In this document: piece by piece, positions 43,722 to 61,544 of the stretch | Layout: each line of letters begins with the position of its first letter | How positions within the stretch are numbered: position 1 is the stretch's first letter | Notes under the pieces: model-generated | Told to the model about the DNA's origin: nothing | The model's database searches: none | What the model saw: the letters and a program-made list of their open reading frames with translations, nothing else | Made by a program: the position numbers and the translations under genes | Source of the DNA: Clostridia bacterium | Lineage (GTDB): Bacteria; Bacillota; Clostridia; Oscillospirales; CAG-382 | Direction: 5' to 3' | Assembly (NCBI GenBank): GCA_017399965.1 | Contig: JAFQAP010000003.1 | Span: forward strand, 40,028-104,027 | Length of the DNA: 64,000 nt

Positions 43722-45386
43722 ATGCTTTTTTCACTACATATCCGCTGCGTTGCACTTATTAAGGAATTGGATATAGACCTTTCCGAAGGGCTTACCGTCT
43801 TTACGGGTGAAACGGGCGCAGGCAAAAGTATTATCATAGATTCAATAGCCCTGCTTTGCGGCGCACGGAGCGATAAAAGTATTATCCGCACCGGAGAAGA
43901 CAGCGCCGAGGTGGAGGGTGTTTTCGGTATGCTTTCTTCCGATGTGGTAAAGGCGCTGGAAAAAGAAGAGGTGTACCCCGATGAAGAGGGAAACCTGTTC
44001 CTTACCCGCCGTATCACCGCCGACGGCAGAAGTGTTTCCCGCATAAACGGCAGAGTTGTGCCCGTGGGCAAGCTCCGTGCCGTTTCAGCGTATCTTTTGG
44101 ATATTCACGGTCAGCAGGATACCACCCGTCTTGCAGACGAGAGCATACATCCCGCCCTTTTGGATCTGTATGCGGATAATAAGGCGGAAAAGGAAGAGTA
44201 TTTAAAAGCCTACCGCGTTTACACCGCTTTGCGCAAGGAAAAGCAGGCGCTTCTGGAGGATATGGAAAACACGGAGGAAAAGAAGGATTTTCTTTCCTAC
44301 CGTCTTAAAGAGCTCCGCCGCGCAAAGCTTAAAGCGGGGGAGGAAGAAGAGCTTACCGCAAAGCGGAATATGCTTGTAAACCGCGAAAAGATAGTGGTTT
44401 CCGCAAGAAACGCATATTATGCGCTGTATGAAAAAGACGAATCCGCCGCATATCTTATCTCGATGGCGGAAAACGCTCTCTCCGCCCTTTCGGATTATGC
44501 GGAGGAAGCAAAAGAGCTTTCCCAAAGGCTTGAAAGCGTGCGGTTGGAAATAGAAGATATTGCAGATACCGTGGTGTCTTATGCAGACGACCCCGAAGGC
44601 GACCCTCAGTCCGCTTTGGACAATATAGAAGCCCGCCTTTCTCTTATATCCTCTCTCCGACGTAAATACCGCACGGATGAATCGGGGCTTATTGCTCTGC
44701 TTGAAGAAACCGAAAACGAGCTTAACAGTATAGAAAACAGCGTCTTCCGTAAGGAGGATATAGAAAAAGAGCTTATTAAAGCGGAAAAAGAGGCTTCCGA
44801 AAAGGCATACGCCTTGTATACCACCCGCGCACGCGCCGCAAAGGAAATGGAAAAACAGATAAAGGATATCCTTTCCGCTCTGGATATGCCCGGAGTGACC
44901 TTTGTGACCGAGTTTGAAAAAACGCCTCTTTCCCCTTTGGGTACGGAAAAAGCAAGGTTTTTAATATCCGCCAACCCGGGAGAAGAGCCTCGTCCCGTGG
45001 CAAAAATAGCATCGGGCGGGGAATGTGCCCGTATAATGCTGGCGGTAAAGAGCGTCCTTGCAAACGCAGAGAATATCGGTACAATGATATTCGACGAGGT
45101 GGATACGGGTATTTCGGGCGCAACCAGCTCCCGTATCGGTATGCGTCTTAAGGCTCTGGCGGGAACGGACAAGCAGGTCATCTGCGTTACCCACTCCGCC
45201 CAGATAGCCGCTTTGGCAAAAAATCATTTACTCATTTCAAAAAGCGCATCCTTCGGCAGAACAGAGACCCACGTCCGCCCTCTTCACGGCGAAAGCCGCG
45301 TAAAAGAGGTGGCGCGTATTATGGGAGGCATAGAGCCCGGGGAAGAAATAATAAACGCAGCAAGAACAATGATAAAAAACCCGTGA
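43722..45386 (+). CDS. recN: DNA repair protein RecN
   Basis: 554 aa with Walker A TGETGAGKSIIIDS, coiled-coil middle, and C-terminal SGGECARIMLA and IFDEVDTGISG. Confidence 0.95.
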   Translation: MLFSLHIRCVALIKELDIDLSEGLTVFTGETGAGKSIIIDSIALLCGARSDKSIIRTGEDSAEVEGVFGMLSSDVVKALEKEEVYPDEEGNLFLTRRITADGRSVSRINGRVVPVGKLRAVSAYLLDIHGQQDTTRLADESIHPALLDLYADNKAEKEEYLKAYRVYTALRKEKQALLEDMENTEEKKDFLSYRLKELRRAKLKAGEEEELTAKRNMLVNREKIVVSARNAYYALYEKDESAAYLISMAENALSALSDYAEEAKELSQRLESVRLEIEDIADTVVSYADDPEGDPQSALDNIEARLSLISSLRRKYRTDESGLIALLEETENELNSIENSVFRKEDIEKELIKAEKEASEKAYALYTTRARAAKEMEKQIKDILSALDMPGVTFVTEFEKTPLSPLGTEKARFLISANPGEEPRPVAKIASGGECARIMLAVKSVLANAENIGTMIFDEVDTGISGATSSRIGMRLKALAGTDKQVICVTHSAQIAALAKNHLLISKSASFGRTETHVRPLHGESRVKEVARIMGGIEPGEEIINAARTMIKNP

Positions 45387-45404
45387 TACAATCACGGGTT
45401 TTTT
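45374..45404 (+). terminator. Rho-independent terminator overlapping the recN stop
   Basis: ACCCGTGA-tacaa-TCACGGGT stem followed by TTTTTT. Confidence 0.8.
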
Positions 45405-45528
45405 GAATGAGGAATGAGGAATGCGCCGCGTTGCTTCGCACCGCTAAATGAGGAATTTCGGAAGATTTTTGTTCGTTACGAACAAAAATCAACCATCATT
45501 TCTCATTCATCATTCATCATTCCTCATT
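45405..45528 (+). repeat. Family-A island
   Basis: In order: AATGAGG heptads, the aatgCGCCGC...GCTAAATGA module, GATTTTTG-TTCGttaCGAA-CAAAAATC (45464-45490), then CATTTCT/CATTCAT/CATTCCT heptads. Confidence 0.85.
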
Positions 45529-45559
45529 AAAAAATGCCGCCAAAAAGGCGGCGTTTTTT
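45529..45559. terminator. Bidirectional terminator hairpin
   Basis: AAAAAATGCCGCC-aaaaa-GGCGGCGTTTTTT. Confidence 0.75.
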
Positions 45560-46682
45560 ATTCCGGAATACTGAAGTCACTATGCGTCATCATATCGTAC
45601 AGCTTATACTGACCGTCAACTTCGTGGAAATAGAGGGAAAGGTCTATATATTCGTACTGTTCGCGGGCGTTGCCTCTTATGGCGTGCCAGGTATATTTTA
45701 CTCTGCAGGAGAACACGCCGTCGGCGTATTCGTAAAATTCAAAGGTCTGTTCATCTAAAAATTCACATTCGTTGTGTGCGTGAACGTAGAAGTTTTCCAG
45801 AGTTCTTATTTTTTCGTAAAGGTCGCTTTTGGGGTCGATATAAGGCTTAACACCGTTAAATGTACCGCACGCCTGCGCAAACTTTGCGTAATTTACGGAA
45901 AACGCAAGGGCAATTTCGGAATAAAGCTCCTTTAATTCCTCGTTGTAGTTTACGGTTGCCCGGAACACTCCGTTTTCGTCCTTTGTTACGGTGCAGGGTG
46001 CGCCGTATTTATCGGTCACGGTAATATTTTCGGTTTTATACAACAGACCGTCCAGAACGTATGTGGAATATTTTATTCCTTGGGTCGGGTCGCCGTTGTG
46101 GAAAACTCTGTCCGGCATATGGGCGCAGGATTCTGTTTCCGTAACCTCGGTAACGCAGCTTTTGTCAAGGGTGTATCCGTTAACAGTAACCGTCGCATCG
46201 GAGGGCGCGATTATCTTTACGGAAACCGTTTCCACCTTGTAAAAGAATTCGTATCCCCCCATAGTGTATATAGAGTTGCCGTATTCCGTTTTTTCGCCTG
46301 AATTCACCACGGTAAACTGGGCAAACTTGTATTTACCTGCGCTTACCACGTATTTAAACACGTCACCGGTAATAGAACCGCTTGCCGCTTCGTTATAGGT
46401 TATTTCACCGCCGCCGATCTGGTCGGTAACGTATTTTATAAGGTCTTCCTTCGTTTCCGCGGGAGAAACGTTAAAAGGGTTGGTTTCTATAAGCGCCTCT
46501 ATATCGAGGTTTTTGAAATATGTGTCAAACACCTGCTCAGCCACGTACTTGGGACGGGTGGATTCATAATCCGCCATCCAGCTTTTTAAAAGTCCCAGTC
46601 CGTATGCCACACAGCATACGCCTACCAGCACAAGCAAAGCAAGAATGGTATAAAAATACGGGAAACGCTTTGTTTTTTCCAT
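45558..46682 (-). CDS. N-terminally membrane-anchored hypothetical extracellular protein
   Basis: 374 aa with one TM helix (FYTILALLVLVGVCCVAYGLGLL). GGGGGA RBS. Starts 4 nt after the upstream stop. Confidence 0.65.
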   Translation of the reverse strand: MEKTKRFPYFYTILALLVLVGVCCVAYGLGLLKSWMADYESTRPKYVAEQVFDTYFKNLDIEALIETNPFNVSPAETKEDLIKYVTDQIGGGEITYNEAASGSITGDVFKYVVSAGKYKFAQFTVVNSGEKTEYGNSIYTMGGYEFFYKVETVSVKIIAPSDATVTVNGYTLDKSCVTEVTETESCAHMPDRVFHNGDPTQGIKYSTYVLDGLLYKTENITVTDKYGAPCTVTKDENGVFRATVNYNEELKELYSEIALAFSVNYAKFAQACGTFNGVKPYIDPKSDLYEKIRTLENFYVHAHNECEFLDEQTFEFYEYADGVFSCRVKYTWHAIRGNAREQYEYIDLSLYFHEVDGQYKLYDMMTHSDFSIPE

Positions 46683-46685
46683 TTT

Positions 46686-47825
46686 TTATTCCCCCTTGTC
46701 CTTTGCTACCACAAAATAGGTGGGCATTGTTCTGGGCGGTATAAACGCCTTGTATTTGTTTACTATACCCTGAAGCTGGTATTGGTCCAGAGCGGATTCG
46801 TCTATATGATAACGGGATATGTAGTTATCGAAATACATAAGCGAAGACGTACCGCCGTCCAGCATACCCGCAACAACTGCGCCTTGGGAAACCAGCAGAT
46901 CTATAATATCGTTTCTGGAAGCGCCTATACTTGCGGCGCTGCGTCCGTCCGTAACCACCAAAAGCATGGTTCCGTCCGCCCGCTGACCGATAGCCGTTCT
47001 CTGTGCCGCGCCTACGTTGCCTTCGCTGTAATGCAGCTGAACCTTGCCGTTTTCGTTGGTTATAAGCACGTTTCCGTTCTGGAAGCAAACGCCGTCCCGT
47101 ATCTTAAGCTCTTCCGCTTCTTTTTTGGTCATACCTTCTTTAACGATAAGACGGTCGTTTTCGTCAATACCGATAAACGTCAGGCGTATGCCGTCATCCC
47201 ACACGCACTGGTTTTGGGAATATGTTATTCCCAAAGGGATATTTCCGGGGCTGGAGCCGTTATCGGGAAATCCGCCTGCGTTGATAACCACGTGGGCATC
47301 GTATTTTTGGGCTATTTTAAATATAGTCATGCCTTGGGGCGCAACTCCCATATTATCGCATACACCCACAAACACGCGGGAAGGGTCTTTTACCACGGTC
47401 AGATATGCGCGGTAGGTAGAGCCCTGCAAAAACTCAAGCCGCACTCCTTCGGGGTAATCTGCCCATTCGTCGTATTCCTCGCCGCCGCCGATATCCGTGC
47501 CTTCGGGGGGCTTGGGCTTGAAATCGTTAATGTCTATTTCGGTAACGGTTACTTTTTCGCTGTTTGCCATTATTTCGTTAATGGTATCATCATCCAAAAA
47601 CAGACCGGGAAGCCATTTTGTGGCAGACGCCTGCTTTGCGGAAAGAACCAGCATATCTCTCAAAGAAGGGCTGGGACCGTTGGCAAGGGTAAGTCCCAGC
47701 GCGTACACGCTTCCCACAAGGAAAAGCAGTATGACCAGCAGGGTTATAAGGGTTCGGCGCACCACCAGCCAAAAGGTCTTGACCGCCTTGGAACGCTCTT
47801 TTTTCTCTTTGTTTCTTTTTATCAT
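46686..47825 (-). CDS. Phosphodiester glycosidase family protein (DUF2233/NAGPA-like), membrane-anchored
   Basis: 379 aa from MIKRNKE, with an ATGA overlap with the upstream stop. Contains INAGGF, RTAIGQRADGTMLLVVTDGR and GMLDGGTSS. Confidence 0.7.
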   Translation of the reverse strand: MIKRNKEKKERSKAVKTFWLVVRRTLITLLVILLFLVGSVYALGLTLANGPSPSLRDMLVLSAKQASATKWLPGLFLDDDTINEIMANSEKVTVTEIDINDFKPKPPEGTDIGGGEEYDEWADYPEGVRLEFLQGSTYRAYLTVVKDPSRVFVGVCDNMGVAPQGMTIFKIAQKYDAHVVINAGGFPDNGSSPGNIPLGITYSQNQCVWDDGIRLTFIGIDENDRLIVKEGMTKKEAEELKIRDGVCFQNGNVLITNENGKVQLHYSEGNVGAAQRTAIGQRADGTMLLVVTDGRSAASIGASRNDIIDLLVSQGAVVAGMLDGGTSSLMYFDNYISRYHIDESALDQYQLQGIVNKYKAFIPPRTMPTYFVVAKDKGE

Positions 47826-48919
47826 TTTTTCTTTTTTCCTCCGAACACCCACTCACGCTGCAGAGTAAAGCTGAGTATAAACAGCACGGTATCCACCGCC
47901 GCTTTTATAAGGGTGATAACGATCTCTTTTGTGCCGTTGGGCAGTAATATGGTTATTCCGCCTACGGATGCGCCGGAAATAAGCATTATAAGTATTACCA
48001 GCACGTAATATTTAAGCATTGTGTGCTTTGCGCCCGTCTTCTTTGCAAAAACAAGACGGCTGTTTACAAAATAGTTGTAAAGGGAAGATATAATTCTTGC
48101 CGCTGCGGTACAGCAGGCGGTGCATATAAACTTTGCCTCTGCCGTTTCTGAAAACTTGGATAAAAACAAAAAAGAAAACAGAGTAAACAAGGCAAGGTCA
48201 ATAGCCGTTGCGGAAAGGGAAGAAAACGCATATCCGAATATCTGCTTATAGATCATAAAAGAATCTTTTAAAGGGTTAAAATGGGATGTTTTGTTTTCTT
48301 CTATGTAAACCGTTTCAATGGAATTTTCTGCAAAGGGTATGCCGTTATCCTTCAAGGCAAGCAGCATATTCGTTTCGTATTCAAATCTGTCCCCCTTAAC
48401 AGCCATAAGAATGTCTAAAAATTCTATGGGGATAGCGCGGAGTCCCGTCTGGGTATCGGTTATCCGTATTCCGCACAGATATTTGAATACAAAAGCGGTC
48501 ATCTTGTTGCCGAAAACGCTTCTTGCGGGGATACCGGGCAGGTTGAAATTACGTGCGCCCAAAATAATTTTGTTTTCCCCCAGCATACGCATTGCGCAGG
48601 AAAGCACGTCTTCGGGGCGGTGCTGTCCGTCCCCGTCCACCGTCACCACGCCCAAAGCCTCGGGGCGTGTTTTTTTAACGTATGCAAAGGCGGTTTTAAG
48701 TCCCGCGCCCTTGCCGCGGTTTATCCAATGGTTTATTACGGTACAGCAGGGGTACTCTTCGGGGGAAGGGAAGTTTTGCTCGCACTCCGTTTTGCTTCCG
48801 TCGTTTATTATAACAATATCTGTAAATCCCGCATCCATAAGCCCCTGAACCGTCTTTTTCAGTTTTTCATCAGGGTTGAGAGAGGGTATAATTACGGTTA
48901 TCTTTGAGATAGAAGACAT
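47822..48919 (-). CDS. Glycosyltransferase family 2 fused to a C-terminal GtrA-like membrane domain
   Basis: 365 aa with VIIPSLNPDEKL, IVIINDGS and TVDGDGQH (DxD). The C-terminal four TM helices resemble GtrA. Confidence 0.8.
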   Translation of the reverse strand: MSSISKITVIIPSLNPDEKLKKTVQGLMDAGFTDIVIINDGSKTECEQNFPSPEEYPCCTVINHWINRGKGAGLKTAFAYVKKTRPEALGVVTVDGDGQHRPEDVLSCAMRMLGENKIILGARNFNLPGIPARSVFGNKMTAFVFKYLCGIRITDTQTGLRAIPIEFLDILMAVKGDRFEYETNMLLALKDNGIPFAENSIETVYIEENKTSHFNPLKDSFMIYKQIFGYAFSSLSATAIDLALFTLFSFLFLSKFSETAEAKFICTACCTAAARIISSLYNYFVNSRLVFAKKTGAKHTMLKYYVLVILIMLISGASVGGITILLPNGTKEIVITLIKAAVDTVLFILSFTLQREWVFGGKKKK

Positions 48920-48937
48920 AAGTTTTCTCCTTTATTT

Positions 48938-49070
48938 AATGAGGAATGATGAATGCGACGCGATGCAAAGCATCGCTAAATGATGAATGATGGAAACCTT
49001 TTTCACGCTTCGCGTGAAAAAGCTACCGAAATTCCTCATTCCTCATTCCTCATTCCTCATTTTCATCATT
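48938..49070. repeat. Family-A island
   Basis: In order: AATGAGG/AATGATG heptads, GCGATGC-aaa-GCATCGC, CTTTTTCACGC-ttc-GCGTGAAAAAG, then CATTCCT heptads. The pyrR stop (49066-49068) lies in the last word. Confidence 0.85.
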
Positions 49071-49608
49071 CCAGCCCTGCGGGCTCTAATATTGCTACTT
49101 CCGTTTTTCCGTCCAATTCTTTGACACGCACCGCAATTTTTTCTTTGCGGGAGGTGGGCACGTTTTTACCCACGTAATCGGCACGTATGGGCAACTCTCT
49201 GTGGCCTCTGTCAATAAGGGCGGCAAGGCGTATGGCGGCAGGTCTTCCGCAAAGCATTACCGCCTCAATGGCGGCGCGTACCGTTCTGCCGGTGTATAAA
49301 ACGTCGTCCACCAGCACCACCGTCTTTCCTTCCACCGCAGTCTTTAAAGGGGTTTTTTCGGTCTTGCGTATGTTTCCGTTATCATCCCGGAAGGGGGAAA
49401 CGTCCAGCTCCTCCACGGAAACCTCTACCCCGTAGGAGTTTTTTATACGCATGGCTATTCGGTTTGCAAGGGGAAGCCCTCTGCGGCGTATACCCACAAG
49501 GCATATGGAGGATATGTCCTCGTTTTTTTCCACTATCTCGTGGCTTATGCGGGTGAGCGAGCGTTCCAGTGCCTGCTCGTCCAGCAGTATGGTCTTTTCT
49601 CTGTACAT
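49066..49608 (-). CDS. pyrR: Bifunctional pyr operon regulator / uracil phosphoribosyltransferase PyrR
   Basis: 180 aa. PRPP motif VVLVDDVLYTGRTVRAA and IDRGHRELPI. Confidence 0.9.
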   Translation of the reverse strand: MYREKTILLDEQALERSLTRISHEIVEKNEDISSICLVGIRRRGLPLANRIAMRIKNSYGVEVSVEELDVSPFRDDNGNIRKTEKTPLKTAVEGKTVVLVDDVLYTGRTVRAAIEAVMLCGRPAAIRLAALIDRGHRELPIRADYVGKNVPTSRKEKIAVRVKELDGKTEVAILEPAGLE

Positions 49609-49786
49609 ATATTCCGCCTTTAAGGTATATAATTTTACTTCATAACAGATATTATACTGTTTTTTTAATATAAGTCAACACATTTCTTACATATTAATAA
49701 TTAATTAACAGCTATTTTCGTTGACAAACGAGGGCTTTTGTAATATAATATTATATCTGTAAAATGCGGAAGGAGGCGTTTTCGTT

Positions 49787-50575
49787 TTGGGCAGATGTGT
49801 TTTTGTAACATCCTTTAAAGGCGGTGTGGGAAAAAGCTTTGTTTCCGCCAATCTTGCGGGTGCATTAACAAATCTGGGCAAAAAAGTTCTTGTTGCGGAC
49901 GGGGACTTAGGTATGCGCAGTATGGATATCCTGCTGGGCTGTGAAAACGCTTCGCTTTTTGATATCAAGGACGTTATATCCGGCGCTTGTCCCGTGGAAA
50001 AAGCGATAATTAAAGCAGAAAAAGCCGGCTTTCCCGATTTCATTCCCGCACCCCAGACCTATGACGGATCTACGCTGGATAAAGAGCGCACCCACGCATT
50101 GTTTACATACCTTAAAAGCGTGTACGATTACGTGCTTATAGATTCCTCTGCGGAATATTCGCCCTATTATTCGCTTCTTGCATCCTGCGCGGATACGGCG
50201 GTCATCGTTACCGCCCATCAGTCCACGGCGGTGCGTGCGGCAGAAAAAACCGCATCGCTTCTTGCAAAGGAAGGGTTAAAGGAGCAATATCTGGTAATAA
50301 ATATGTTCCGCAAAAAAGAAGCGGAAAAAGGCTTGCTGCCCGACCCTGCGGATATTATCCTGAATTCCGCCGTACCTCTTTTGGGAATTGTCCCTTGGGA
50401 TAAAAATGCGGCGACAGAGGCGGAAAAGGGCGGAATTGCTTTTTGCAGCCGCAAAGGCAAAGCATATTCCTTTGAAGCGGCGGCAATAAATATAGCCTAC
50501 CGTCTGTGCGGAAACGAGGTTCCCTTGTTTAAAGGGGTTTACCGCACCTTAAGAAGAAAATTCTATCTTAAATAA
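49787..50575 (+). CDS. MinD/ParA-family P-loop ATPase (MinD-like; no minC or minE nearby)
   Basis: 262 aa with a TTG start 9 nt after GGAAGGAGG. Deviant Walker A SFKGGVGKS and DGDLGMRSMD. Confidence 0.7.
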   Translation: MGRCVFVTSFKGGVGKSFVSANLAGALTNLGKKVLVADGDLGMRSMDILLGCENASLFDIKDVISGACPVEKAIIKAEKAGFPDFIPAPQTYDGSTLDKERTHALFTYLKSVYDYVLIDSSAEYSPYYSLLASCADTAVIVTAHQSTAVRAAEKTASLLAKEGLKEQYLVINMFRKKEAEKGLLPDPADIILNSAVPLLGIVPWDKNAATEAEKGGIAFCSRKGKAYSFEAAAINIAYRLCGNEVPLFKGVYRTLRRKFYLK

Positions 50576-50610
50576 TAAAATATTAAAGGCAAGAAAGGAC
50601 GATTATTATT

Positions 50611-51009
50611 ATGGAAATAGCAATTATCGCCAACGATAAGAAAAAAGAGCTTATCACCGAATTCTGCATAGCATATTGCGGAGTGCTTGCCAAGCACAAC
50701 ATCTGTGCAACAGCTACGACAGGAAAATACATAAGCGAAGCAACGGGACTCAAAGTTACCCGTATGCTTGCAGGCTCTCACGGCGGAGCAGAGCAGATCG
50801 CTGCCCGTATAGCGTATAACGAGATCGACCTGGTTATCTTCCTGCGCGACCCCAATACGGATGCAGAGTATATAGATACCACGCTTCAGGTCATCCGTCT
50901 GTGCGATAGCCATAACATCCCCGTTGCAACCAATATCGCAACTGCGGAGGCGCTTATTCTGGCGCTCGGCAGAGGAGACCTTGATTGGAGAGAGATTCAG
51001 AGAAAATGA
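50611..51009 (+). CDS. mgsA: Methylglyoxal synthase
   Basis: 132 aa. Contains IAIIANDKKKEL, ATATTGKYI and GSHGGAEQIAA. The stop TGA lies inside the first AATGAGG word of the next island. Confidence 0.85.
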   Translation: MEIAIIANDKKKELITEFCIAYCGVLAKHNICATATTGKYISEATGLKVTRMLAGSHGGAEQIAARIAYNEIDLVIFLRDPNTDAEYIDTTLQVIRLCDSHNIPVATNIATAEALILALGRGDLDWREIQRK

Positions 51010-51105
51010 GGAATGATAAATGATAAATGATGAATGATGGTTGATTTTTGTTCGCAGAACAAAAATCTTCCGTAATTTCTCATTCCTCATTCCTCATTCA
51101 TCATT
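51004..51105 (-). repeat. Family-A island (inverted relative to 52389-52515)
   Basis: In order: AATGAGG/AATGATA/AATGATG heptads, ATGGTT, GATTTTTG-TTCgcaGAA-CAAAAATC (51043-51067), CTTCCG, then CATTCCT/CATTCAT heptads. Confidence 0.85.
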
Positions 51106-51128
51106 AATTTTTACGGAGTAAAAATTCT

Positions 51129-52388
51129 ATGGAACAAATAAAAAAACCTCGGGGAACACTTGATATTCTTCCCGAGCAGACTGCCGCCTGGCAGTATATC
51201 GAAAAAATAATACGCAAAAAGTGTCTTGAATACGGCTTCGGCGAGATACGCTTCCCCACCTTTGAAGCTACCGAGCTGTTCTCCCGCGGTGTGGGCGATA
51301 CTACCGACGTGGTGCAAAAGGAAATGTACACCTTTAAGGATAGGGACGACCGCAGTCTGTCCTTGCGTCCGGAGGGAACGGCGTGCGTTGTCCGCAGTAT
51401 GCTGGAAAACGGTCTTTACGCAGGCGCAATGCCCTTAAAGCTGTATTATCTTACCAATTTCTTCCGCTACGAAAAGCCCCAGGCAGGCAGAAGCAGAGAG
51501 TTTTTCCAGTTCGGAACAGAGCTGTTCGGCTCCGAATCCCCTGCGGCGGATGCAACGGTCATCTCCCTTGCATACAGCGTGTTCAAGGAATTGGGACTTA
51601 ATAATGTGGTGCTTCACATAAATTCCGTGGGCTGTCCCGGCTGCCGTCCCAAATACAGAGAAGCACTTGTTGAATATCTTGGCGGATACACGGAGGGTCT
51701 TTGCCCCACCTGTCTTGAAAGACTGGGCAAAAATCCCCTTCGCGTGCTGGATTGCAAATCTCCCGTATGCTCGGAAATAGCAAAAAACGCACCCAAGACC
51801 ACACAGCACCTTTGCGAGGATTGCGAACAGCATCTTAAAGCGCTTACGGATATTCTTGATGCATCGGGAATTCCTTACGTTATAGATTCGGGTATCGTAA
51901 GAGGCTTGGATTATTACACCGGCACGGTGTTTGAGTTTATAGATGAACGTATCGGCGCCCAGTCCACCGTTTGCGGCGGCGGCAGATACGACGGACTCGT
52001 TTCCCAGCTTGGCGGACCGCAGATGTCGGGCGTAGGCTTTGGTATGGGTATTACCCGTCTTATCGCCTGCCTTGAAACGGAGAATTTGTTAAAGAGCGTG
52101 GATACCGCACCGGATATCTATCTTGCTCCCGCGGAAAAGAGCGTGTATGCAAAAGTATTTACTCTTTGCGAACAGCTCCGCGCTATGGGTATAAAGGCGG
52201 AAACCGACCTTTGCTCCCGCAGTATAAAAGCGCAAATGAAATATGCGGATAAAATTCACGCCCGCTTTACAGCCGTTATCGGCGGAACAGAGACGGAAAC
52301 CGGCGTAGTTACGGTCAAGAATATGCAAGACGGCGGCAGGGCGGAAGTCGCACTTACGGCGGCAGACATTGCTAACGCAATAAAATAA
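51129..52388 (+). CDS. hisS: Histidine--tRNA ligase
   Basis: 419 aa. Class II motifs (RFPTFE, FRYEKPQAGRSREF, GGGRYDGL) and a C-terminal anticodon-binding domain. Confidence 0.95.
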   Translation: MEQIKKPRGTLDILPEQTAAWQYIEKIIRKKCLEYGFGEIRFPTFEATELFSRGVGDTTDVVQKEMYTFKDRDDRSLSLRPEGTACVVRSMLENGLYAGAMPLKLYYLTNFFRYEKPQAGRSREFFQFGTELFGSESPAADATVISLAYSVFKELGLNNVVLHINSVGCPGCRPKYREALVEYLGGYTEGLCPTCLERLGKNPLRVLDCKSPVCSEIAKNAPKTTQHLCEDCEQHLKALTDILDASGIPYVIDSGIVRGLDYYTGTVFEFIDERIGAQSTVCGGGRYDGLVSQLGGPQMSGVGFGMGITRLIACLETENLLKSVDTAPDIYLAPAEKSVYAKVFTLCEQLRAMGIKAETDLCSRSIKAQMKYADKIHARFTAVIGGTETETGVVTVKNMQDGGRAEVALTAADIANAIK

Positions 52389-52515
52389 ATGAGGAATGAG
52401 GAATGCGACGCTCTTGCAAGCAAGAGCTAAATGAGGAATTTCGGAAGATTTTTGTTCGCAGAACAAAAATCAACCATCATTCATCATTCATCATTCATCA
52501 TTTCTCATTCCTAAT
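52389..52515 (+). repeat. Family-A island between hisS and aspS
   Basis: In order: AATGAGG heptads, GCTCTTGC-aa-GCAAGAGC, CGGAAG, GATTTTTG-TTCgcaGAA-CAAAAATC (52447-52471), AACCAT, then CATTCAT heptads. Confidence 0.85.
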
Positions 52516-52552
52516 TCTTCACTATACTTTGAAAGAAGGCAAAATTAAAACC

Positions 52553-54334
52553 ATGGCAGAATTACTTGGAAATTCAAAAAGAACTCACTATTGCGGTGAG
52601 TTTACTATACAAAACGCAGGCGAACGCGCATGCGTAATGGGCTGGTGTCAAAGACAGCGTGACCTTGGCTCGCTTATATTTATCGACTTGCGTGACAGAA
52701 GCGGCATCGTTCAGCTGGCTTTTGACGAAAACACCGAAAAGGATATTTTTGATAAAGCTTTCGGTATAAGAAGCGAATACGTGCTCTGCGCATCCGGCGT
52801 GGTAAGAGAGCGCTCCTCCAAAAATCCCCAGATACCTACGGGTGATATCGAAATAGCGGTAGACGAATTAAAGGTTCTCTCCGTATCCCAGACAACACCC
52901 TTTGAAATAACCGAAAACTCCCGCGCTAACGAGGAGCTCCGCTTAAAGCACCGTTATCTCGACCTGCGCCGTCCCGATCTGATGCAAAATCTGCTGTTCA
53001 GACACAAGGTTGCCAAGGTCACCAGAGATTATTTCGATGAAAACGGCTTTGTGGAAATAGAAACTCCCATTCTTATCCGCTCCACTCCCGAAGGTGCGCG
53101 TGACTATCTCGTTCCCAGCCGTATCAGAAAAGGCTCCTTCTACGCTCTGCCCCAATCCCCCCAGCTGTATAAGCAGCTTTCCATGGTTGCGGGCTTTGAC
53201 AGATATATGCAGATCGCCCGCTGCTTCCGTGATGAAGACCTGCGCGCAGACAGACAGCCCGAATTCACCCAGATCGACTTTGAAATGTCCTTCGTTCAGA
53301 TGGAGGACGTGCTTAACGTCGGCGAAGGATATATCCGCCGTGTATTCAAGGAGACCTTGGACGTGGACGTGCCCGAGATACCCCGTTATACCTACCGTGA
53401 ATGTATGAACCGTTACGGCAGCGATAAGCCGGATATGCGCTTCGGTATGGAGATCGTCGATATTTCCGATATAGTTAAGGGCTGTGATTTTTCCGTGTTC
53501 ACCTCTGCGGTAGCTGCAGGCGGCAGCGTCAGAGGTATAAACTGCAAGGGCTATGCGGAAAAGCTTACCCGTAAAGAGATAGACAAGCTTACCGAGTACG
53601 CAAAGGGATGCGGCGCAAAGGGACTTGCTTGGATAAAGAGAGTCGGCGGAAACGTAACCTGCTCTTTCGGCAAGTTTATGACAGAGGACGAGCTTAACTG
53701 CATCTGCACCCGCCTTGATTGTACCGACGGCGACGTGGCATTTATTATAGCAGATACCAACGATAACGCGGTTCTTACCCAGCTTGGCCAGCTCCGTGTA
53801 GAGGCGGCAAACAGACTGGACGTTCCCAGAGAGGGCTACAGCTTCCTTTGGGTAGTGGAATTCCCCTTCTTTGAAAAGGATGCGGAAACCGGCGAATGGA
53901 TGGCAATGCACCACCCCTTTACCGCGCCGCTTGACGAATGTCTGCCTTATCTTGAAACGGATAAAGGCTCGGTCCGCGCAAAGGCGTACGACCTTGTGCT
54001 TAACGGTATCGAACTTTCCTCCGGCTCTATCCGTATAACCGACCCCGCTTTGCAGGCGACGATCTTCCGTCTGCTGGGTCTTTCCGACGAAGAGGCACAG
54101 CAAAAGTTCGGCTATCTGCTGGACGCATTCAAATACGGCGCACCTCCCCACGGCGGTATGGCGCTGGGTCTGGACAGACTTGTAATGCAAATGCTGGGCG
54201 CTCCCACCTTGCGTGACGTTGTGGCGTTCCCCAAGGTATCCAACGCATCCGAGCTTATGACAGACTGCCCTGCCGAAGTACCTGCACAGGCACTTGCGGA
54301 TCTGGGTATAAGTATAGACAAACAGGAGAAATAA
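52553..54334 (+). CDS. aspS: Aspartate--tRNA ligase
   Basis: 593 aa from MAELLGNSKRTHYCGEF. The 50 upstream track codons are translated repeat sequence. Contains an OB fold, FRDEDLRADRQPEFTQ, and GGMALGLDR. Confidence 0.95.
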   Translation: MAELLGNSKRTHYCGEFTIQNAGERACVMGWCQRQRDLGSLIFIDLRDRSGIVQLAFDENTEKDIFDKAFGIRSEYVLCASGVVRERSSKNPQIPTGDIEIAVDELKVLSVSQTTPFEITENSRANEELRLKHRYLDLRRPDLMQNLLFRHKVAKVTRDYFDENGFVEIETPILIRSTPEGARDYLVPSRIRKGSFYALPQSPQLYKQLSMVAGFDRYMQIARCFRDEDLRADRQPEFTQIDFEMSFVQMEDVLNVGEGYIRRVFKETLDVDVPEIPRYTYRECMNRYGSDKPDMRFGMEIVDISDIVKGCDFSVFTSAVAAGGSVRGINCKGYAEKLTRKEIDKLTEYAKGCGAKGLAWIKRVGGNVTCSFGKFMTEDELNCICTRLDCTDGDVAFIIADTNDNAVLTQLGQLRVEAANRLDVPREGYSFLWVVEFPFFEKDAETGEWMAMHHPFTAPLDECLPYLETDKGSVRAKAYDLVLNGIELSSGSIRITDPALQATIFRLLGLSDEEAQQKFGYLLDAFKYGAPPHGGMALGLDRLVMQMLGAPTLRDVVAFPKVSNASELMTDCPAEVPAQALADLGISIDKQEK

Positions 54335-54337
54335 CCG

Positions 54338-55324
54338 ATGATCGAGATAATCGACGTTTACAAGAATTTTGGCGATAAGCAGGCGGTAAAGGGCGTTACC
54401 TTTAACGTAGAAGAAGGGGAGATAATGGGCTTCCTGGGCCCCAACGGCGCGGGAAAGACTACTACCCTTAATATACTTACCGGCTATCTTTCCGCATCCT
54501 CCGGCACCTGCCGTATCGACGGGGTGGATATACTTGAAAACCCCGTGGAAGCAAAGAGAAAGATAGGCTTCCTTCCCGAACAGCCTCCTCTTTACGTGGA
54601 TATGACGGTAAAGGAATACCTTTCCTTTGTGTACCAGCTTAAAAAATGCTCACTTCCCAAGGATGCACACCTTAAAGAGGTTTGCGAGGTCGTAAAGATA
54701 ACCGATGTATTCAACCGCAAAATAAAGAACCTTTCCAAAGGCTACCGTCAGCGTGTGGGCATTGCTCAGGCGCTTATCGGAAACCCCAAGGTGCTTATAT
54801 TTGACGAACCTACCGTCGGTCTTGACCCCAAGCAGATAATAGAGATCCGTAACCTTATCCGAGTTCTGGGTAAACAGCATACGGTTATCCTTTCCACCCA
54901 CATACTTCCCGAAGTTCAGGCGGTGTGCGACCGCATAGTTGTTATCAACAAGGGCGAAATAGTGGCAAACGAGCGCACTCAGGACCTTATCAACGCGGTA
55001 GACGGCTCCCGTAAGCTGGTTGCAAAAATTGTCGGTCCCGAAAACGACGTGCTTAAAGCGGTTAAAGCTCTTCCCGGCGTAAAATACGCAGAGGTTTTGG
55101 GCAAACGGGATACCGATTCCACCAGTTATCTTATCGAATCCGAGGATAAAATAGATATCCGCAAGCCTTTGTTTGCGCTTATAGCAAGAAACGGCTGGTA
55201 TCTTATCGGACTTGAAGGAATGGAATTAAACCTTGAGGATATCTTTATCCGTCTTACGGAAAAGAGAAAAGAAAAAGAAATACGCAAGACTGTAAAAAGA
55301 GTAAGAAAGGCAGGGGAAGAATAA
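54338..55324 (+). CDS. ABC transporter ATP-binding protein (GldA-like)
   Basis: 328 aa with Walker A GPNGAGKTT, signature LSKGYRQR and LIFDEPTVGLD. Confidence 0.9.
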   Translation: MIEIIDVYKNFGDKQAVKGVTFNVEEGEIMGFLGPNGAGKTTTLNILTGYLSASSGTCRIDGVDILENPVEAKRKIGFLPEQPPLYVDMTVKEYLSFVYQLKKCSLPKDAHLKEVCEVVKITDVFNRKIKNLSKGYRQRVGIAQALIGNPKVLIFDEPTVGLDPKQIIEIRNLIRVLGKQHTVILSTHILPEVQAVCDRIVVINKGEIVANERTQDLINAVDGSRKLVAKIVGPENDVLKAVKALPGVKYAEVLGKRDTDSTSYLIESEDKIDIRKPLFALIARNGWYLIGLEGMELNLEDIFIRLTEKRKEKEIRKTVKRVRKAGEE

Positions 55325-56031
55325 TGTGGGCTATATATTGCCGTGAGCTCCGCTCATATTTCACAACGCCGATAGGCTATGTGTTTGCGGGAATGTTCCT
55401 TGCCGTTTCCGGCGCGCTGTTCTCCGCAACAGTACTGCTTCAGGCGGACACTTCTATGATGTCTATGTACTTTTTAAGCCTGATGTTCGTTTTTGCAATA
55501 CTCATTCCCTTGCTTACAATGAAGCTTTTTGCAGACGAGCGCCGCACCAAGTCCGAGCAGATACTTCTTACCGCCCCCATTTCTCTGGGCGCAATGGTAA
55601 TTGCAAAGTTCCTTTCCGCGCTTACCGTTTTTGCCGCAGTTCTGGGCGTAAATTCCTTTAACTTCTATTTGCTTTATATATACGGCAATCCTTCTTTGTC
55701 TTATATATTCCTTAATGTGCTCACTCTGTTCCTTATCGGCGCAGCGTTTATCGCAGTGGGCGTGTTCATTTCCTCCCTTACCGAAAGCCAGCTCAACGCC
55801 GCTATCGGTTCTATGGGACTTATAGTAGTAATTCTTTTGCTGGGCGTACTTGTAAACTCCATTCCCGTTGAATGGATGCGCAGTATCATACGTTGGTTTT
55901 CCTTTATAGACAGATACGCCACCATGTCCTCCGGCATACTGGATCTCAGCGCAGTAGTATACTTTATAAGCTTTACGGCAGTATTCCTTTTCCTTACTGT
56001 CCGCGTATACGAAAAGCGCCGTTGGTCATAA
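55324..56031 (+). CDS. ABC-2 type permease (GldF-like)
   Basis: 235 aa with six TM helices. TAATG overlap with the ATPase gene. Confidence 0.8.
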   Translation: MWAIYCRELRSYFTTPIGYVFAGMFLAVSGALFSATVLLQADTSMMSMYFLSLMFVFAILIPLLTMKLFADERRTKSEQILLTAPISLGAMVIAKFLSALTVFAAVLGVNSFNFYLLYIYGNPSLSYIFLNVLTLFLIGAAFIAVGVFISSLTESQLNAAIGSMGLIVVILLLGVLVNSIPVEWMRSIIRWFSFIDRYATMSSGILDLSAVVYFISFTAVFLFLTVRVYEKRRWS

Positions 56032-56045
56032 GGAGGTAATACACA

Positions 56046-57566
56046 ATGGCAAACAACAATAAAAAGAAAATGTCCTTCGGTGAAGTGATAAAGAGCAAAA
56101 AGTTCAGATACGGTTCTCTTTCCGTAGTGTTCACCGCAGTAACTCTGGCGTTTATTATCGGTATAAACCTTATTATCACCGCCCTTAACGCAACCCACAT
56201 TTTTTCTATAGATATGACAGCGGAAGAGTTTTATTCTATCGGTGATGAAACCGTGGAATATCTTGAAGGCTTGGGCGATGATTTTGAGATCACCGTTCAC
56301 TTCTGCACCGCCCGCGACAGACTTGAAGAATACGAGCAGACGGGCTACAACTATTTCCGTATGGTACACGAAACGGTGCTTGCCTTTGCGGAAAAATTCC
56401 CCGATAATATCGAAGTTGCGTATTTCGACGTAACTACAGACCCCAAATACGTAAACGATATAAAGCATTATACCCAGACCACACTTACCGCAAGCAATAT
56501 TATCGTAGAAGGCAAATACCATACCCGTGTCCTTAATTTTGACGCATTCTTTATGGTAGCCGAATCCGATGGCTCCCTTTACGCTTACAACGGCGAATCC
56601 AGAATGGTTTCCGCTATAACACAATGCTCTATCAAGGAGCCTTATACCGTTCTGTTTACTCAGGGACACGGAGAGACCGTATCCAAAAATCTGGTTTCTC
56701 TGTTCCAGGATGCAGGCTTTGCCACACAGAGCATAGATCTTTCCTCCGCAACCGACGAGGAGCTGGAGGAAGCCTTCAAAAACGCACGTATAATGGTTAT
56801 GTGCGATCCTCAGAAGGACTTGGCGGGCTACGATAAAAACAACCCCAACAAAGACGACGAAACAGATATTATAAACAAATTTTTAGGCGGCAACCGCGCA
56901 CTTATGGTGTTTGTGGATGCTTCTACGCCCGATCTTCCCAACCTGCGTGAATATTTGAGCGAGGTTTGGGGCTTGGATTACGAGCCGAACAATATCCTTG
57001 CAGACCAGACCCATTCTCTTATGCTCAACAAGAATAATATTCTTGCCCGTCCTGCAGGAGAAACGGGCACTATCGCCGCACAGCTTCACATCTCCTTTGC
57101 AGACGATACGGATATAAAAACGGTGTTTGACGATACCGTAAAGCTGGTAACCGGCAAGGCGGCAAACGGCGCGTCCGTAGCCACCTCCTTTACCTCCTTC
57201 AACACCGCCACGGATAAAAACGGCGTTTCGGGAGAGTTCCCCATATTCAGCATATCCACCGTTATGGAATATGACGATACCAACGCCGCACAATATCAGT
57301 ACGTAACCCTTTGCGGAAGTACGGAATTTGTATCCGATGCAAGCCTTTCCGCCCAGTACGGCAACCGCGAGGTTATCGAAGCGGCGGCAAGAATGATGTC
57401 CACCGAGCGTATTTCCCCCGATATCGATTATAAGGTATTTGCGGATACAGCCCTTTCCCTTGAGACCGGCGAAGCAAAAACACTTTCCGTTATAGTTATC
57501 GCCGTAGCTCCCCTTATAATTCTGGTACTGGGTGTCGGTGTTTATATTAAGAGGAGACACCTGTAA
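56046..57566 (+). CDS. GldG-like ABC-associated protein (N- and C-terminal TM anchors)
   Basis: 506 aa. TM helices at both ends around a large extracytoplasmic domain. Position and size fit the GldG family. Confidence 0.6.
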   Translation: MANNNKKKMSFGEVIKSKKFRYGSLSVVFTAVTLAFIIGINLIITALNATHIFSIDMTAEEFYSIGDETVEYLEGLGDDFEITVHFCTARDRLEEYEQTGYNYFRMVHETVLAFAEKFPDNIEVAYFDVTTDPKYVNDIKHYTQTTLTASNIIVEGKYHTRVLNFDAFFMVAESDGSLYAYNGESRMVSAITQCSIKEPYTVLFTQGHGETVSKNLVSLFQDAGFATQSIDLSSATDEELEEAFKNARIMVMCDPQKDLAGYDKNNPNKDDETDIINKFLGGNRALMVFVDASTPDLPNLREYLSEVWGLDYEPNNILADQTHSLMLNKNNILARPAGETGTIAAQLHISFADDTDIKTVFDDTVKLVTGKAANGASVATSFTSFNTATDKNGVSGEFPIFSISTVMEYDDTNAAQYQYVTLCGSTEFVSDASLSAQYGNREVIEAAARMMSTERISPDIDYKVFADTALSLETGEAKTLSVIVIAVAPLIILVLGVGVYIKRRHL

Positions 57567-60032: not shown

Positions 60033-60034
60033 AT

Positions 60035-60745
60035 ATGAAAAAGAGTTTACTTTGTCTTGTTTTGGCTCTTTCTCTGTTGCTTTGCGCCTGCTCCGGCGCA
60101 GACGAAACGCTTATCACCCCCGTTACCCAAAGCTTTAAGGATTTCGGCACCGCAGACTACGGCTTTTCTTTAAGAATAGAGCTGGGCGGAAGAACCTGTG
60201 TCCTGCTTGCTTCCGGAAACATCTCTATGGACGAAAACTCAAAGCAAATGACGGGTGAGATAGAAGAAACCCTTATGGGCGATAATATCGGTATAATGCA
60301 GGTAGAGTGGAAAAACGGCACCATGAAAACCGACGGGATCGAAGAAAAGCTTACTTGGGAAGAGATGAGAAGCTCTCTCATATATGCACATCCTTTGGTG
60401 TTTGATTCGGAGCAGGTGAAATCCGCAGAAAAAACCACTACCATTGCAGGAACTTTGTACCGCCACTATGTTAAGGATAATTCCCAAAACAAACTGCTTT
60501 ACTCCCTGCTGGGCTCCGCTTTGCCGGAGGTTTGCGGTGTGGTAAGCGTTGTGGAGGATGAAACCGAATTTAAGGATATAGTGTGCGAATACACCTTGGA
60601 TAAAGAAGGAAACCCTGCAGGATACTCTGTTTCCTTTACCGTTATTTATCAGGATACTCCTCCGTACGTGCCCGGTGTTAACCAGGATAAGGATAAATAC
60701 ACCGTGGAAGTTGACGTGGAGTTCCGCGCAAATTATAATAACTGA
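60035..60745 (+). CDS. Hypothetical lipoprotein
   Basis: 236 aa with lipobox LLLCACSG. Starts 2 nt after the preceding stop. Confidence 0.7.
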   Translation: MKKSLLCLVLALSLLLCACSGADETLITPVTQSFKDFGTADYGFSLRIELGGRTCVLLASGNISMDENSKQMTGEIEETLMGDNIGIMQVEWKNGTMKTDGIEEKLTWEEMRSSLIYAHPLVFDSEQVKSAEKTTTIAGTLYRHYVKDNSQNKLLYSLLGSALPEVCGVVSVVEDETEFKDIVCEYTLDKEGNPAGYSVSFTVIYQDTPPYVPGVNQDKDKYTVEVDVEFRANYNN

Positions 60746-60749
60746 ATAT

Positions 60750-60845
60750 CATTTTACGGGGTGCTGTATAATATATATACGGCTGAGAATATACCCGATG
60801 AACCTGTCAGATAATACTGTTGAAGGGAGAAGACGTGTAAAAAAC
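60750..60845 (+). promoter_or_regulatory. TPP (THI-box) riboswitch aptamer
   Basis: Reads acGGGGTGC...GCTGAGA..ACCCgaTGAACCTGtcaGATAATACtgttGAAGGGA, which matches the THI-box consensus blocks. Upstream of thiT. Confidence 0.85.
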
Positions 60846-60866
60846 GTCAAAATGGTAAAAAATTAT

Positions 60867-61523: not shown

Positions 61524-61544
61524 AGATTCTTTAGCAAGCAGGAT

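Follow-up and report, generated by a model that had tools for sequence, protein, structure and literature searches.

Heptamer-repeat islands with an AT-rich hairpin core adjoin stop codons in an uncultured gut Clostridia bacterium

We analyzed a 64,000-nt stretch of contig JAFQAP010000003.1 (positions 40,028 to 104,027 of the forward strand; hereafter the window), whose spacers between genes carry islands of tandem 7-nt repeats arranged around a small hairpin. These islands belong to a lineage-specific family of mosaic intergenic repeats that can be compared with repetitive extragenic palindromes (REPs) and their bacterial interspersed mosaic elements (BIMEs), and with the intergenic heptamer repeats of other bacteria. 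They have a common anatomy and sharp boundaries, are hypervariable inside fixed edges, supply stop codons and C-terminal tails to the genes they adjoin, owe the coding-like features of their words mostly to composition, and lack the features of terminators. The best explanation, to which we give a probability of roughly 55%, is a REP/BIME-like family of heptamer repeats that fills dispensable 3' spacer and is bounded by selection on the neighboring signals.

The source is an uncultured Oscillospiraceae/Clostridia gut bacterium represented by a metagenomic contig. The window is identical (100%) to two contigs from gut-sample metagenomes (ENA scaffold_554 and k141_201251); the nearest GTDB genomes are uncultured Oscillospiraceae/Clostridia metagenome-assembled genomes from ruminant guts, with HisRS 92-96% identical, and identity falls to about 60% in the next relatives. 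The source assemblies provided the gene calls and Pfam labels, which were converted to window coordinates. The census of islands was carried over 83 kb of the same contig, i.e. the window and 9 kb on either side. L-numbers label the loci, contigs and strains used for comparison (e.g. L006-L008), and L115 is the same contig to the left of the window.

Island anatomy and adjacency to stop codons

Tandem Repeats Finder (TRF) and our own period-7 scan detected about 25 period-7 arrays in the 64 kb, which were grouped into 16 islands, compared with 8 arrays in total in about 75 loci of distant relatives. The island arrays lie between genes, and where they reach into one they cover no more than its last codons. 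The 9 kb on each side of the window add five islands, one of which (X, at the DAGK gene) abuts a stop codon. The island plan is a small AT-rich hairpin core between tandem 7-nt arrays in inverted orientation. The core comes in two types, core1, (C)GGAAGA-TTTTTG-apex-CAAAAA-TCAACC(AT), with a variable apex, and core2, (C)GGTAGC-TTTTTT...AAAAAA-GGTTTCC, with nine and five hairpins in the 64 kb, respectively, and intermediates exist (e.g. GGAAGC...GCAACC). The 30 armed cores contain 24 distinct apical inserts, and 29 of them form at least two extra base pairs; because this apical stem co-varies across armed cores, the core is a hairpin kept by compensatory change. Exact-pattern hits of the core that have neither arms nor apical pairing look like chance matches. 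There is one core per island, rarely two in the same orientation (R), and no second inverted core. In the window its orientation with respect to the flanking genes is about half and half by our own tally.

The arms are written in several heptad dialects, namely AATGAGG/AATGATG, AACTATG/AACGATG/AACTAGG/AACGAGG, AGAGTGA, and purine-only GAGAGAA. The word AATGAGG, on which the original prediction was built, is present, but only as one among several (AATGATG, AACTATG/AACGAGG, AGAGTGA and GAGAGAA being the others). On either strand the 5' arm contains G and almost no C, and the 3' arm is its pyrimidine partner; this chirality holds for all periodic arms (5' arms G>C in 20/20, 3' arms C>G in 25/25), foreign dialects included. 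The arm beside the GGAAGA head is mostly of the ..GAGG kind (G at position 6 in 40/49), and the arm opposite to it is largely ..GATG (T at position 6 in 33/68), so that the island is polar and its heptads pair with about one mismatch each. Variants of the plan include half islands (an arm and a core), mini-island P, which has no core, and the tandem arm-plus-core units of R and S outside the window. In R an upstream TAA is followed after 7 nt by a core and not by an arm, an exception to the inverted-arm architecture.

A 42-mer palindrome (CCCGGGGTTCCCC...GGGGTGGG) is nested inside arms. This 42-nt module, CCCGGGGTTCCCCGAAAACGCTATGCGTTTTTGGGGTGGG, was located at 627-709 (two tandem copies), 8654-8691, 27360-27404 and 34614-34651, in each case between ..GGAAC and AATGA. 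A related CCCCGC...GCGGGG element is found also away from the islands (440-480 and 4526-4612). Another nested unit is a GC-rich hairpin module (CGACGC-stem-loop-stem-GCTA; 598-620, 31733-31756, 45424-45446, 48956-48978 and 52407-52430), which is set within a heptad and has AATG on both sides; these flanks suggest a 4-nt duplication at the point where the module may have inserted.

The original prediction listed ten genes whose stop codon lies where the purine-rich arm starts. In the gene calls of the assembly all ten end exactly there (mgsA, hom, hisS and the 17032 gene on the plus strand; pgk, glyQS, the DUF1854 gene, the TMEM164-like gene, the 139-aa gene and pyrR on the minus strand; Table 1), each stop being at or inside the first heptad of the arm as read on the coding strand. 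Two further cases, the Gly_transporter gene (eleventh) and the DAGK gene (twelfth), bring the islands that abut or overlap a stop to 11 of 16 in the window and 12 of 21 in the 83 kb. With each island placed at random within its own intergenic region, 2.06 of the 21 would be expected within 3 nt of a stop (P = 8e-9), which bears out the proposed enrichment: the stop adjacency of the islands is real. A stricter null, which is rough, hand-set and partly circular, bars the islands from about 20 nt before start codons and from separate terminator hairpins, and yields about 8.5 expected versus 12 abutting among 17 islands (P ~1e-3). Thus, much of the adjacency, although not all of it, arises because short spacers leave only the stop-side position free.

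Stop codons are one of several features at which islands end. Edges also abut separate canonical terminators at their T- or A-run (both edges of L, the left edges of P, I and X, and islands F, Q and S) or the -35 box of a promoter (A), and in five of six co-directional gene pairs (B, E, M, N and O) the downstream edge keeps a distance of 18-35 nt to the next start and stays just clear of the ribosome-binding region; the exception is island J, with 89 nt to the next start. By type of intergenic region, islands occur in 4/6 convergent, 11/29 co-directional and 1/6 divergent cases. A preference for insertion next to stop codons, which had been offered as one reading, is neither required by these data nor demonstrated by them, as edges abut whichever constrained feature comes next. 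At the orthologous sites of the relatives no clean empty site was found: the sole island-free orthologue (P in L008) keeps a 16-nt spacer, possibly a decayed heptad pair. An attempt to read a target-site duplication from an empty site was dropped for the same reason, as the spacer at this site may itself derive from heptads. Compared with miniature inverted-repeat transposable elements, the islands have arms that serve as long inverted repeats, and no flanking direct duplication.

The words themselves have consequences for translation. The arithmetic of the original prediction is correct, i.e. three AATGAGG units place a TGA in all three frames and create ATG AGG AAT GAG GAA TGA. Its suggestion that the arms insulate neighboring cistrons fared only partly: the all-frame stops, the ATG and the GAGGA similar to a Shine-Dalgarno (SD) motif are in the sequence, but they are mostly by-products of the composition of C-free, single-T, period-7 words. 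A C-free heptad with a single T contains TAA, TAG or TGA in about three of four cases, the stop cycles through all frames because the period is 7, and ATG and GAGG appear in the arms because of the same composition. All three frames are closed in 15 of 23 arms of at least 21 nt, compared with 11.5 expected after permutation of the letters within the heptad. All-frame stops were therefore rejected as a strong signal, since most of the apparent excess disappears in this control. In the pyrimidine sense 17 of the 23 arms are open in all frames. Stop-free arms exist (C-left, I-left and K), none of which faces an open reading frame (ORF).

Gene ends, strain turnover and distribution

In about half of the abutting genes the stop is inside the heptad itself, which also encodes 0-5 tail residues; the remaining ones keep a native TAA, and the arm begins at the next base. 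Stops do matter permissively: no arm touches an ORF without supplying or keeping an in-frame stop. TGA terminates 6/11 island-abutting genes versus 6/41 others (P = 0.011), the others using TAA in 34/41. Comparison with orthologs, a check suggested along with the original prediction, revealed C-terminal tails that co-vary with the heptad word in mgsA and PyrR, and a tail residue added inside a heptad in PGK. The mgsA product ends with QRK-TGA where the word is AATGAGG (window and L006), with QRN-TAG where it is AACTAGG, and with QKK-TGA where it is AGTGAAG, and MGS is missing nothing conserved. The alignment of PyrR with PyrR proteins of solved structure extends to ...ILE, one residue short of their ends, after which the tail is PAGLE* in the window, PEEL* in L007 and PNEER* in L008; in the latter the AACGAGG heptad offers no stop, and the ORF continues four codons further to a TAA. 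Bacillus PGKs end with ...NDK or ...EDK; their ...LNDK end is kept here with one codon added (...LNDKQ*) before the TGA, both inside AGTGAAG. The hisS gene retains its own TAA in five genomes, with unrelated heptads from the very next base.

Islands mislead gene calling also at the other side. AspRS is overcalled (by 52403-52552) from an ATG inside island O as a protein of 643 aa; the real start is at 52553, which gives the 593 aa of strain L113. The lipoprotein (a 501-aa gene) is overcalled by 35 codons (11445-11549) from 11549 inside island C, its real start being at 11444 (MKKLFTILLSCILLVSCAGG, with a lipoprotein signal and GGAG 7 nt upstream). Both artefacts are due to the purine arm, which provides an SD motif with an ATG, and to the pyrimidine arm, where most frames are open. 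In L115 (5220-5245) the start of a gene of the 23S_rRNA_IVP family lies in register within AATAATG AGGAATG ATAAATG, with GAGGA 7 nt upstream, and here the heptads appear to act as a real SD motif and start codon.

Islands with these heptad words are confined to the genus-level relatives L006-L008, with a remnant in L009. Of 18 readable cases at five orthologous sites (L, M, N, O and P), 17 contain an island, in addition to the L009 remnant; the outer boundaries are conserved to the nucleotide, and core type, core orientation, dialect and nested modules differ. In a strain with 98-99% aligned DNA identity the interiors are unrelated at each of the three sites that were compared (X, P and O): beside island O the aspS coding DNA of the window and of L113 is 97-100% identical in 150-nt windows, and the islands are unrelated inside. 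Island M of the window shares the left arm and the GC module with that of L006 and has the core flipped, as expected from recombination between inverted arms. Import of islands together with flanking DNA from another species was considered and rejected: the L113 island resembles that of L007, yet the aspS flank is only 89-97% identical to L007, and no co-imported flank is visible. Species-specific arm dialects were rejected as well, as two dialects coexist in one genome (F versus the rest) and differ at one site between strains. A public short-read contig, L004, which covers 28239-31680 of the window, ends inside island H.

The distribution of the core is wider than that of the words. An exact-pattern scan of metagenomes for core1 returned 26 loci on contigs of 26-59% G+C, about 15 of them with heptad arms of entirely different words (ATTATTC, TTATTAC, ATTACCT, TTTTGAA, AGTxxxx), which follow the base composition of the host. 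The core halves GAAGATTTTTG...CAAAAATCAAC are found in L100 and L101 (58-59% G+C) as well as in L087, L088 and L108 (26-29% G+C); the identity of the halves is imposed by the exact-match search, and the breadth of distribution alone is informative. Long ORFs end directly at the arm or core in eight elements (L087, L089, L092 twice, L100, L101, L109 and L111), and a ninth case, L099, is the mgsA-hisS junction of a relative. Among the 60%-identity relatives, L010 has TAG directly followed by three copies of TTATCAG and then GGAAGA-hairpin-TCAAT, and L041 has TAA, 2 nt, four copies of GAATTCG, GGAAGA-AAACCGCC...GGCGGTTT-TCAACC and four copies of ATTCTGC. The IMG/VR viral collection contains one further element with its own heptad words; the plasmid collection gave two chance-level 35-nt matches and nothing more.

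Predicted RNA folds of the full islands of the window (all except P) are long imperfect hairpins of -22 to -57 kcal/mol, and P reaches only -8.6. In 12 folds with shuffle controls the z-score is about -5 to -7 for eight; it is weaker (-2.2 to -2.8) for island C on the plus strand and island J on both strands. Island N folds with -39 kcal/mol (z = -5.8). Islands with purine-only arms (C, I and J) fold much better on the transcribed strand via G-U pairs. Strand-specific RNA selection was rejected, as the sense strand folds better in 8/11 islands of the window and only in 5/15 of those in sister genomes and strains. Assignment to a known RNA family was likewise dropped: the islands have no Rfam match at the gathering score, and an E-value scan of islands M-O gave one chance hit (E = 0.9). 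A stabilizer hairpin, one of the functions originally proposed, is plausible for structures of this kind.

Table 1. Positions, composition and neighboring signals of islands A to P and of islands X and R outside the window
Feature	Position (strand)	Location	Composition	Neighboring stop or signal
A	560-723	divergent region	half island; core2, GC-hairpin module, two tandem 42-mers, CCTCATT arm	arm ends 4 nt before a perfect TTGACA-17-TATAAT promoter, 728-756, read directly from the sequence
B	8628-8775	tpiA/pgk (-) gap	42-mer nested in the opposite arm	pgk TGA 8768-8770 (-) inside first AGTGAAG
C	11479-11585	apparent 5' leader of lipoprotein gene (start 11444), assigned solely from a TATAAT-like box between SecG and the island	purine-only, stop-free GAGAGAA arm	no stop touched
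D	17464-17481 (+)	directly behind 144-aa gene (17032 gene)	solitary short arm, TGA then ATGATGAATGAGGAA	TGA 17464-17466 (+)
E	23126-23247	gtrA/glyQS (-) gap		glyQS TAA 23245-23247 (-), then ATGAGGAATGAGG
F	24722-24842		AACTATG/AACGAGG words, core2	separate terminator between the island and the upstream stop
G	27325-27429		half island (arm, 42-mer, core2)	DUF1854 gene TAA 27427-27429 (-), then TGATGAATGAGG
H	31651-31775		core1, GC-hairpin module	hom TGA 31655-31657 (+) inside first GGAATGA
I	34520-34667		opposite arm purine-only	TMEM164-like gene (-) reads AAT GAG GAA, then TGA 34663-34665; opposite arm abuts a terminator
J	35506-35608			TAA 35606-35608 of 139-aa gene (-), then ATGAGGAATGATG
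K	38089-38150	upstream of OLE RNA	half island (core2, GTTTCTC/GTTCCTC arm)	far from any stop
L	45404-45529	fits exactly from the T-run of the recN terminator to the A-run of the terminator of the convergent gene		no stop touched
M	48938-49070	GT2/pyrR (-) gap	core2, GC-hairpin module	pyrR TGA 49066-49068 (-) inside AATGATG
N, 5' purine arm	51005-51039 (+)	end of mgsA (MGS called 50611-51009)	AATGAGG AATGATA AATGATA AATGATG AATGATG (sequence and TRF period 7)	mgsA TGA 51007-51009 (+) within first heptad
N, core1	51040-51070 (head on -)		GTTGATTTTTGTTC-GCA-GAACAAAAATCTTC, reverse complement of GAAGATTTTTG...CAAAAATCAAC
N, 3' pyrimidine arm	51071-51105 (+)	before hisS	CGTAATT TCTCATT CCTCATT CCTCATT CATCATT	9 nt to hisS ribosome-binding site (GGAG, 51115-51118), 23 nt to hisS ATG (51129)
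O	52386-52521	hisS/aspS gap	ATGAGGAATGAGG, GC-hairpin module, core1, CATCATT arm	native hisS TAA 52386-52388 (+) directly before the arm
P	61578-61619	between a terminator T-run and the Gly_transporter gene (-)	core-less mini-island	stop TAG 61617-61619 (-), then AATGAGA
X	just past right end of window	behind DAGK gene		DAGK TAA, then TGATGAATG
R	L115 4704-4856		two arm-plus-core units, same orientation, without pyrimidine arms

Several other elements lie near the islands. The promoter beside island A (724-756) serves the cysteine desulfurase/thiI operon. The Rfam gathering-score scan of the window detected only the OLE RNA, two tRNAs, a thiamine pyrophosphate riboswitch and a Gut-1 RNA. The OLE RNA is full-length (38363-39009, plus strand; RF01071, 386 bits), is followed by a CNNM-like gene, dxs, tlyA, nadK, argR and recN, and has repeats on either side, among them half-island K and a ~276-bp dispersed repeat. 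The Gut-1 match (5518-5588, plus strand; RF01706, 51.4 bits, barely over the threshold) lies in a repeat-rich intergenic region. The ~276-bp repeat occurs at 17489-17761 and, inverted, at 39015-39289 (88.8% identity between these two copies), with further copies recognized by eye near 27040-27300, 37830-38060 and 7560-7800; it is unrelated to the heptad islands and adjoins a heptad arm directly at islands D and G.

Passive filling of spacers and its alternatives

According to the reading that we prefer, islands occupy the entire dispensable spacer behind a gene and halt where purifying selection begins, i.e. at the stop codon or a separate terminator on one side and about 18-35 nt before the next start on the other. 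Inside these limits the interior turns over very fast between strains by changes of heptad number and word, inversion of the core, swaps of core type, insertion of modules and complete replacement. The C-free, single-T arm could spread up to or over the last dispensable codons without lengthening the ORF: a heptad of this kind almost always holds a stop because stop codons are without C, and a stop comes up in every frame because seven is coprime with three. Arms of reverse chirality or without stops would be tolerated only where no ORF abuts, and gene ends would snap to island edges. The arms may change by slippage in 7-nt steps and may stay complementary via recombination or template switching between them. 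By likeness to REPs and BIMEs, a transcribed island would be expected to serve as a barrier to 3' exonucleases and a segmental stabilizer of the mRNA, and possibly as a brake on terminating ribosomes.

A number of observations weigh against so simple a picture. The excess of stop-adjacent islands survives the strict null and is driven by roomy intergenic regions (D, G, J and B), so that passive filling is not the full explanation. The near-complete retention of islands at orthologous sites and the universal G-first chirality are equally unexplained by filling and could mean a selected function or a directed mechanism. As no clean empty site was found among the orthologous sites, insertion with a target preference keeps a place among the candidates, and islands R and S, outside the window, break the inverted-arm rule, with the core of R and not an arm following the stop. 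With regard to the transcript, the sense strand folds better in 13 islands and the antisense strand in 12, with no sign of RNA-specific selection, and any role at the RNA level is one that we purely infer. The strict-null excess, the site retention and the chirality together are compatible with selected positioning, with targeting, or with a dedicated mobile system recognizing the core.

Selection on the position itself is a possibility that we hold to be rather doubtful. Islands would then be REP-like regulators, in which a hairpin 0-15 nt past the stop slows or stalls the terminating ribosome, and it is just as doubtful that they protect the 3' end of the upstream cistron and tune the relative expression of operon genes. 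Such a role would accord with the hairpin base at 0 nt from the stop in 12 islands, the constant distance to the next start, the strong folds, the retention of sites despite complete sequence turnover, the excess in roomy regions, and with a scan in which mgsA, hisS and aspS, the genes around N and O, were separated by neither a strong promoter-like site nor a flagged terminator; REPs located no more than 15 nt from a stop are a precedent (Liang et al. 2015, as cited in PMC12306157). However, no transcribed strand is preferred, the role is inapplicable to the many islands that follow a terminator or occupy a 5' leader or divergent region (A, C, F, K, L, Q, S and T), and interiors and stabilities differ so wildly between near-identical strains that they fit tuned regulation poorly. 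An equally doubtful idea is that the AT-rich hairpin headed by G(A/T)AG is the recognition site of an unrecognized mobile or recombination system. In that case the arms would be built or copied in 7-nt steps, whole islands would be flipped and swapped between near-identical strains, the stops and C-terminal tails of housekeeping genes would be continually rewritten, and the G-first chirality with its built-in stops would be an adaptation for living atop gene ends. We consider it unlikely that an enzyme places a mobile core, with or without arms, at or near stops, e.g. in A/T-rich targets containing TAA or TGA. Arms or cores do follow stops immediately in unrelated hosts and dialects, the core combines a GT(A/G)G-like head with a palindrome, as in REPs mobilized by REP-associated tyrosine transposases (RAYTs), and flanks are often rich in T...A; but terminator T-runs, a promoter and pre-RBS (ribosome-binding site) positions are abutted just as precisely, the phase of the stop varies (T-AATGAGG, AA-TGA-GG, or a stop in the second heptad), target-site duplications are not visible, the called genes of the 83 kb include no transposase, and orthologous sites are occupied in all species, with no insertion event observed.

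The remaining alternatives assign a function to the words or to the hairpin. If the words had been selected as translational insulators, chosen for all-frame stops, with the SD-like GAGGA and the ATG sequestered by the opposite arm and the cistrons thereby uncoupled, one would understand why purine arms close more frames than pyrimidine ones, why the G-first chirality is universal, and why the heptad-borne ATG and SD motif mislead gene callers and, in L115 (5220-5240), apparently serve as a real SD motif and start codon. We regard this as improbable, as the excess over permuted heptads is small, stop-less arms exist and AACGAGG arms permit read-through, other dialects lack ATG, GAGG or both (TTATTAC, ATTATTC, GAATTCG, TTTTGAA), and the GGGAATC pairs of Xanthomonas share the chirality without any stop (our own reading, with the unit taken from PMC4692102). 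Transcription termination, another of the original suggestions, would agree with long hairpins at gene 3' ends and with the enrichment of convergent over divergent regions. It is nevertheless rejected, and we leave it hardly any probability: instead of a G+C-rich stem and U-tract the islands have an AT-rich core stem with no T-run after the 3' arm, and a terminator scan of 44000-63000 flagged none of the five islands (L, M, N, O and P), whereas it did flag the canonical terminators beside L. Separate terminator hairpins are visible by eye beside P, I and F as well, N and O lie between genes without a strong promoter-like site behind them, and B, E and M have co-directional genes 18-35 nt downstream (the promoter scan covered N and O only).

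Whichever of these readings holds, the islands have practical consequences. They set the true stop and the last residues of housekeeping proteins, and because of them AspRS is called 50 codons and the lipoprotein 35 codons too long; they may also break assemblies, as at the end of the L004 contig, and, being hypervariable, are markers by which strains of about 98-99% nucleotide identity can be told apart. The absence of C from stop codons and the coprimality of 7 with 3 provide a simple rule for the ability of C-free 7-nt repeats to occupy ORF ends. Should the hairpins influence mRNA decay or termination, they would form a widespread and rapidly evolving layer of operon-internal expression control, and if the core marks a new mobile system, it would be of wider interest.

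Comparison with known repeat systems

Other bacteria also have heptamer repeats overlapping stops; these, like REPs and BIMEs, are a close precedent. The short tandemly repeated repetitive (STRR) heptamers of heterocystous cyanobacteria are intergenic tandem heptamers, and small dispersed hairpin repeats nested in tandem heptamers of Nostoc, reportedly described by Elhai et al. in 2008, resemble the nesting of the 42-mer and the GC-hairpin module. The BOX, RUP and Correia/NEMIS repeats of Firmicutes and Neisseria are modular, transcribed intergenic hairpin repeats that can alter the expression of neighboring genes; unlike the islands, they possess defined terminal inverted repeats as well as target-site duplications, and are known neither for heptad arrays nor for a systematic overlap with stops.

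Among heptamers, the TAACTGA direct repeats of Beggiatoaceae, cyanobacteria and Bacteroidetes (MacGregor 2015, PMC4679880) have stops in all three frames when read forward, and hence necessarily occur at ORF ends; 13 sets overlap the stop of the upstream gene, and related Cyanothece strains differ by indels in 7-nt steps. The likeness lies in tandem intergenic 7-nt units that are near the downstream start and overlap stops. However, TAACTGA forms direct arrays (with a single indirect example) of a single word without a hairpin core, mostly just upstream of starts, where it may replace the SD motif (PMC4679880); the islands described here leave the RBS free and have inverted arms of many words around a conserved hairpin. 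Heptameric repeats of the GGGAATC and GGGGA(C/T)T kinds are known from Xanthomonas and Nostoc (Rehm 2015, PMC4692102). In Xanthomonas, GGGAATC forms 70-75 convergent inverted pairs in which the G-rich arm comes first on either strand. The pairs favor spacers between co-oriented ORFs and overlap the coding-strand stop or lie no more than 50 bp away from it; 83% of them have the same gene context in two species, and their length and sequence vary extensively (PMC4692102). Thus intergenic heptamer arrays, inverted pairs, stop proximity, and conserved position with variable content are common to both, but the GGGAATC repeats form G-quadruplexes, contain no stop codon by our own reading of the unit, are described without a central hairpin or nested modules, and belong to proteobacteria and cyanobacteria, not Clostridia (PMC4692102). 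A general excess of heptanucleotide repeats and the idea of polymerase slippage go back to Mrazek 2007, as cited in PMC4692102. Judged as members of the class of long heptanucleotide simple sequence repeats, the islands show both tandem intergenic 7-nt arrays and stop proximity with conserved position; of the units described before, they contain neither TAACTGA nor runs of GGG.

REPs are defined by a GT(A/G)G head and a palindrome, with the RAYT gene flanked by two inverted REPs (Nunvar 2010, PMC2817692). Core2 has GGTAG(C/T), core1 has GGAAGA, and one core1 copy has GTAGA; the cores are, like REPs, short, high-copy, extragenic imperfect palindromes with compensatory pairing. High copy number, a hairpin behind a short head, mosaic composites and compensatory changes (PMC2817692, PMC3116915) are features in common with REP/BIME, as is the location at 3' ends or between cistrons, many copies being within 15 nt of a stop according to the source cited in PMC12306157, where REPs at this distance are stated to stall ribosomes (Liang et al. 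2015). The differences are that REP/BIME stems are G+C-rich, that REPs alternate as inverted pairs, and that tandem heptad arms are absent (PMC2817692, PMC3116915); alternating BIME clusters with defined linkers have no counterpart here, the cores being flanked by heptad arrays. REP/BIME elements occur in enterobacteria and pseudomonads, and descriptions of the RAYT/REP system confine it to proteobacteria (PMC2817692; Bertels and Rainey 2011, PMC3116915). In the 83 kb, which are only part of the genome, no called gene belongs to the rayt (IS200/IS605-like Y1) Pfam family. What is new in the family described here is the combination of inverted heptad arms with a conserved AT-rich hairpin core across very different genomes, together with mosaic nesting, turnover at the level of strains, and the documented rewriting of stops and C-terminal tails in housekeeping genes of gut Clostridia. 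The phenomena known from heptamer repeats and from REP/BIME are thereby extended to abundant, uncultured members of the gut Clostridia.

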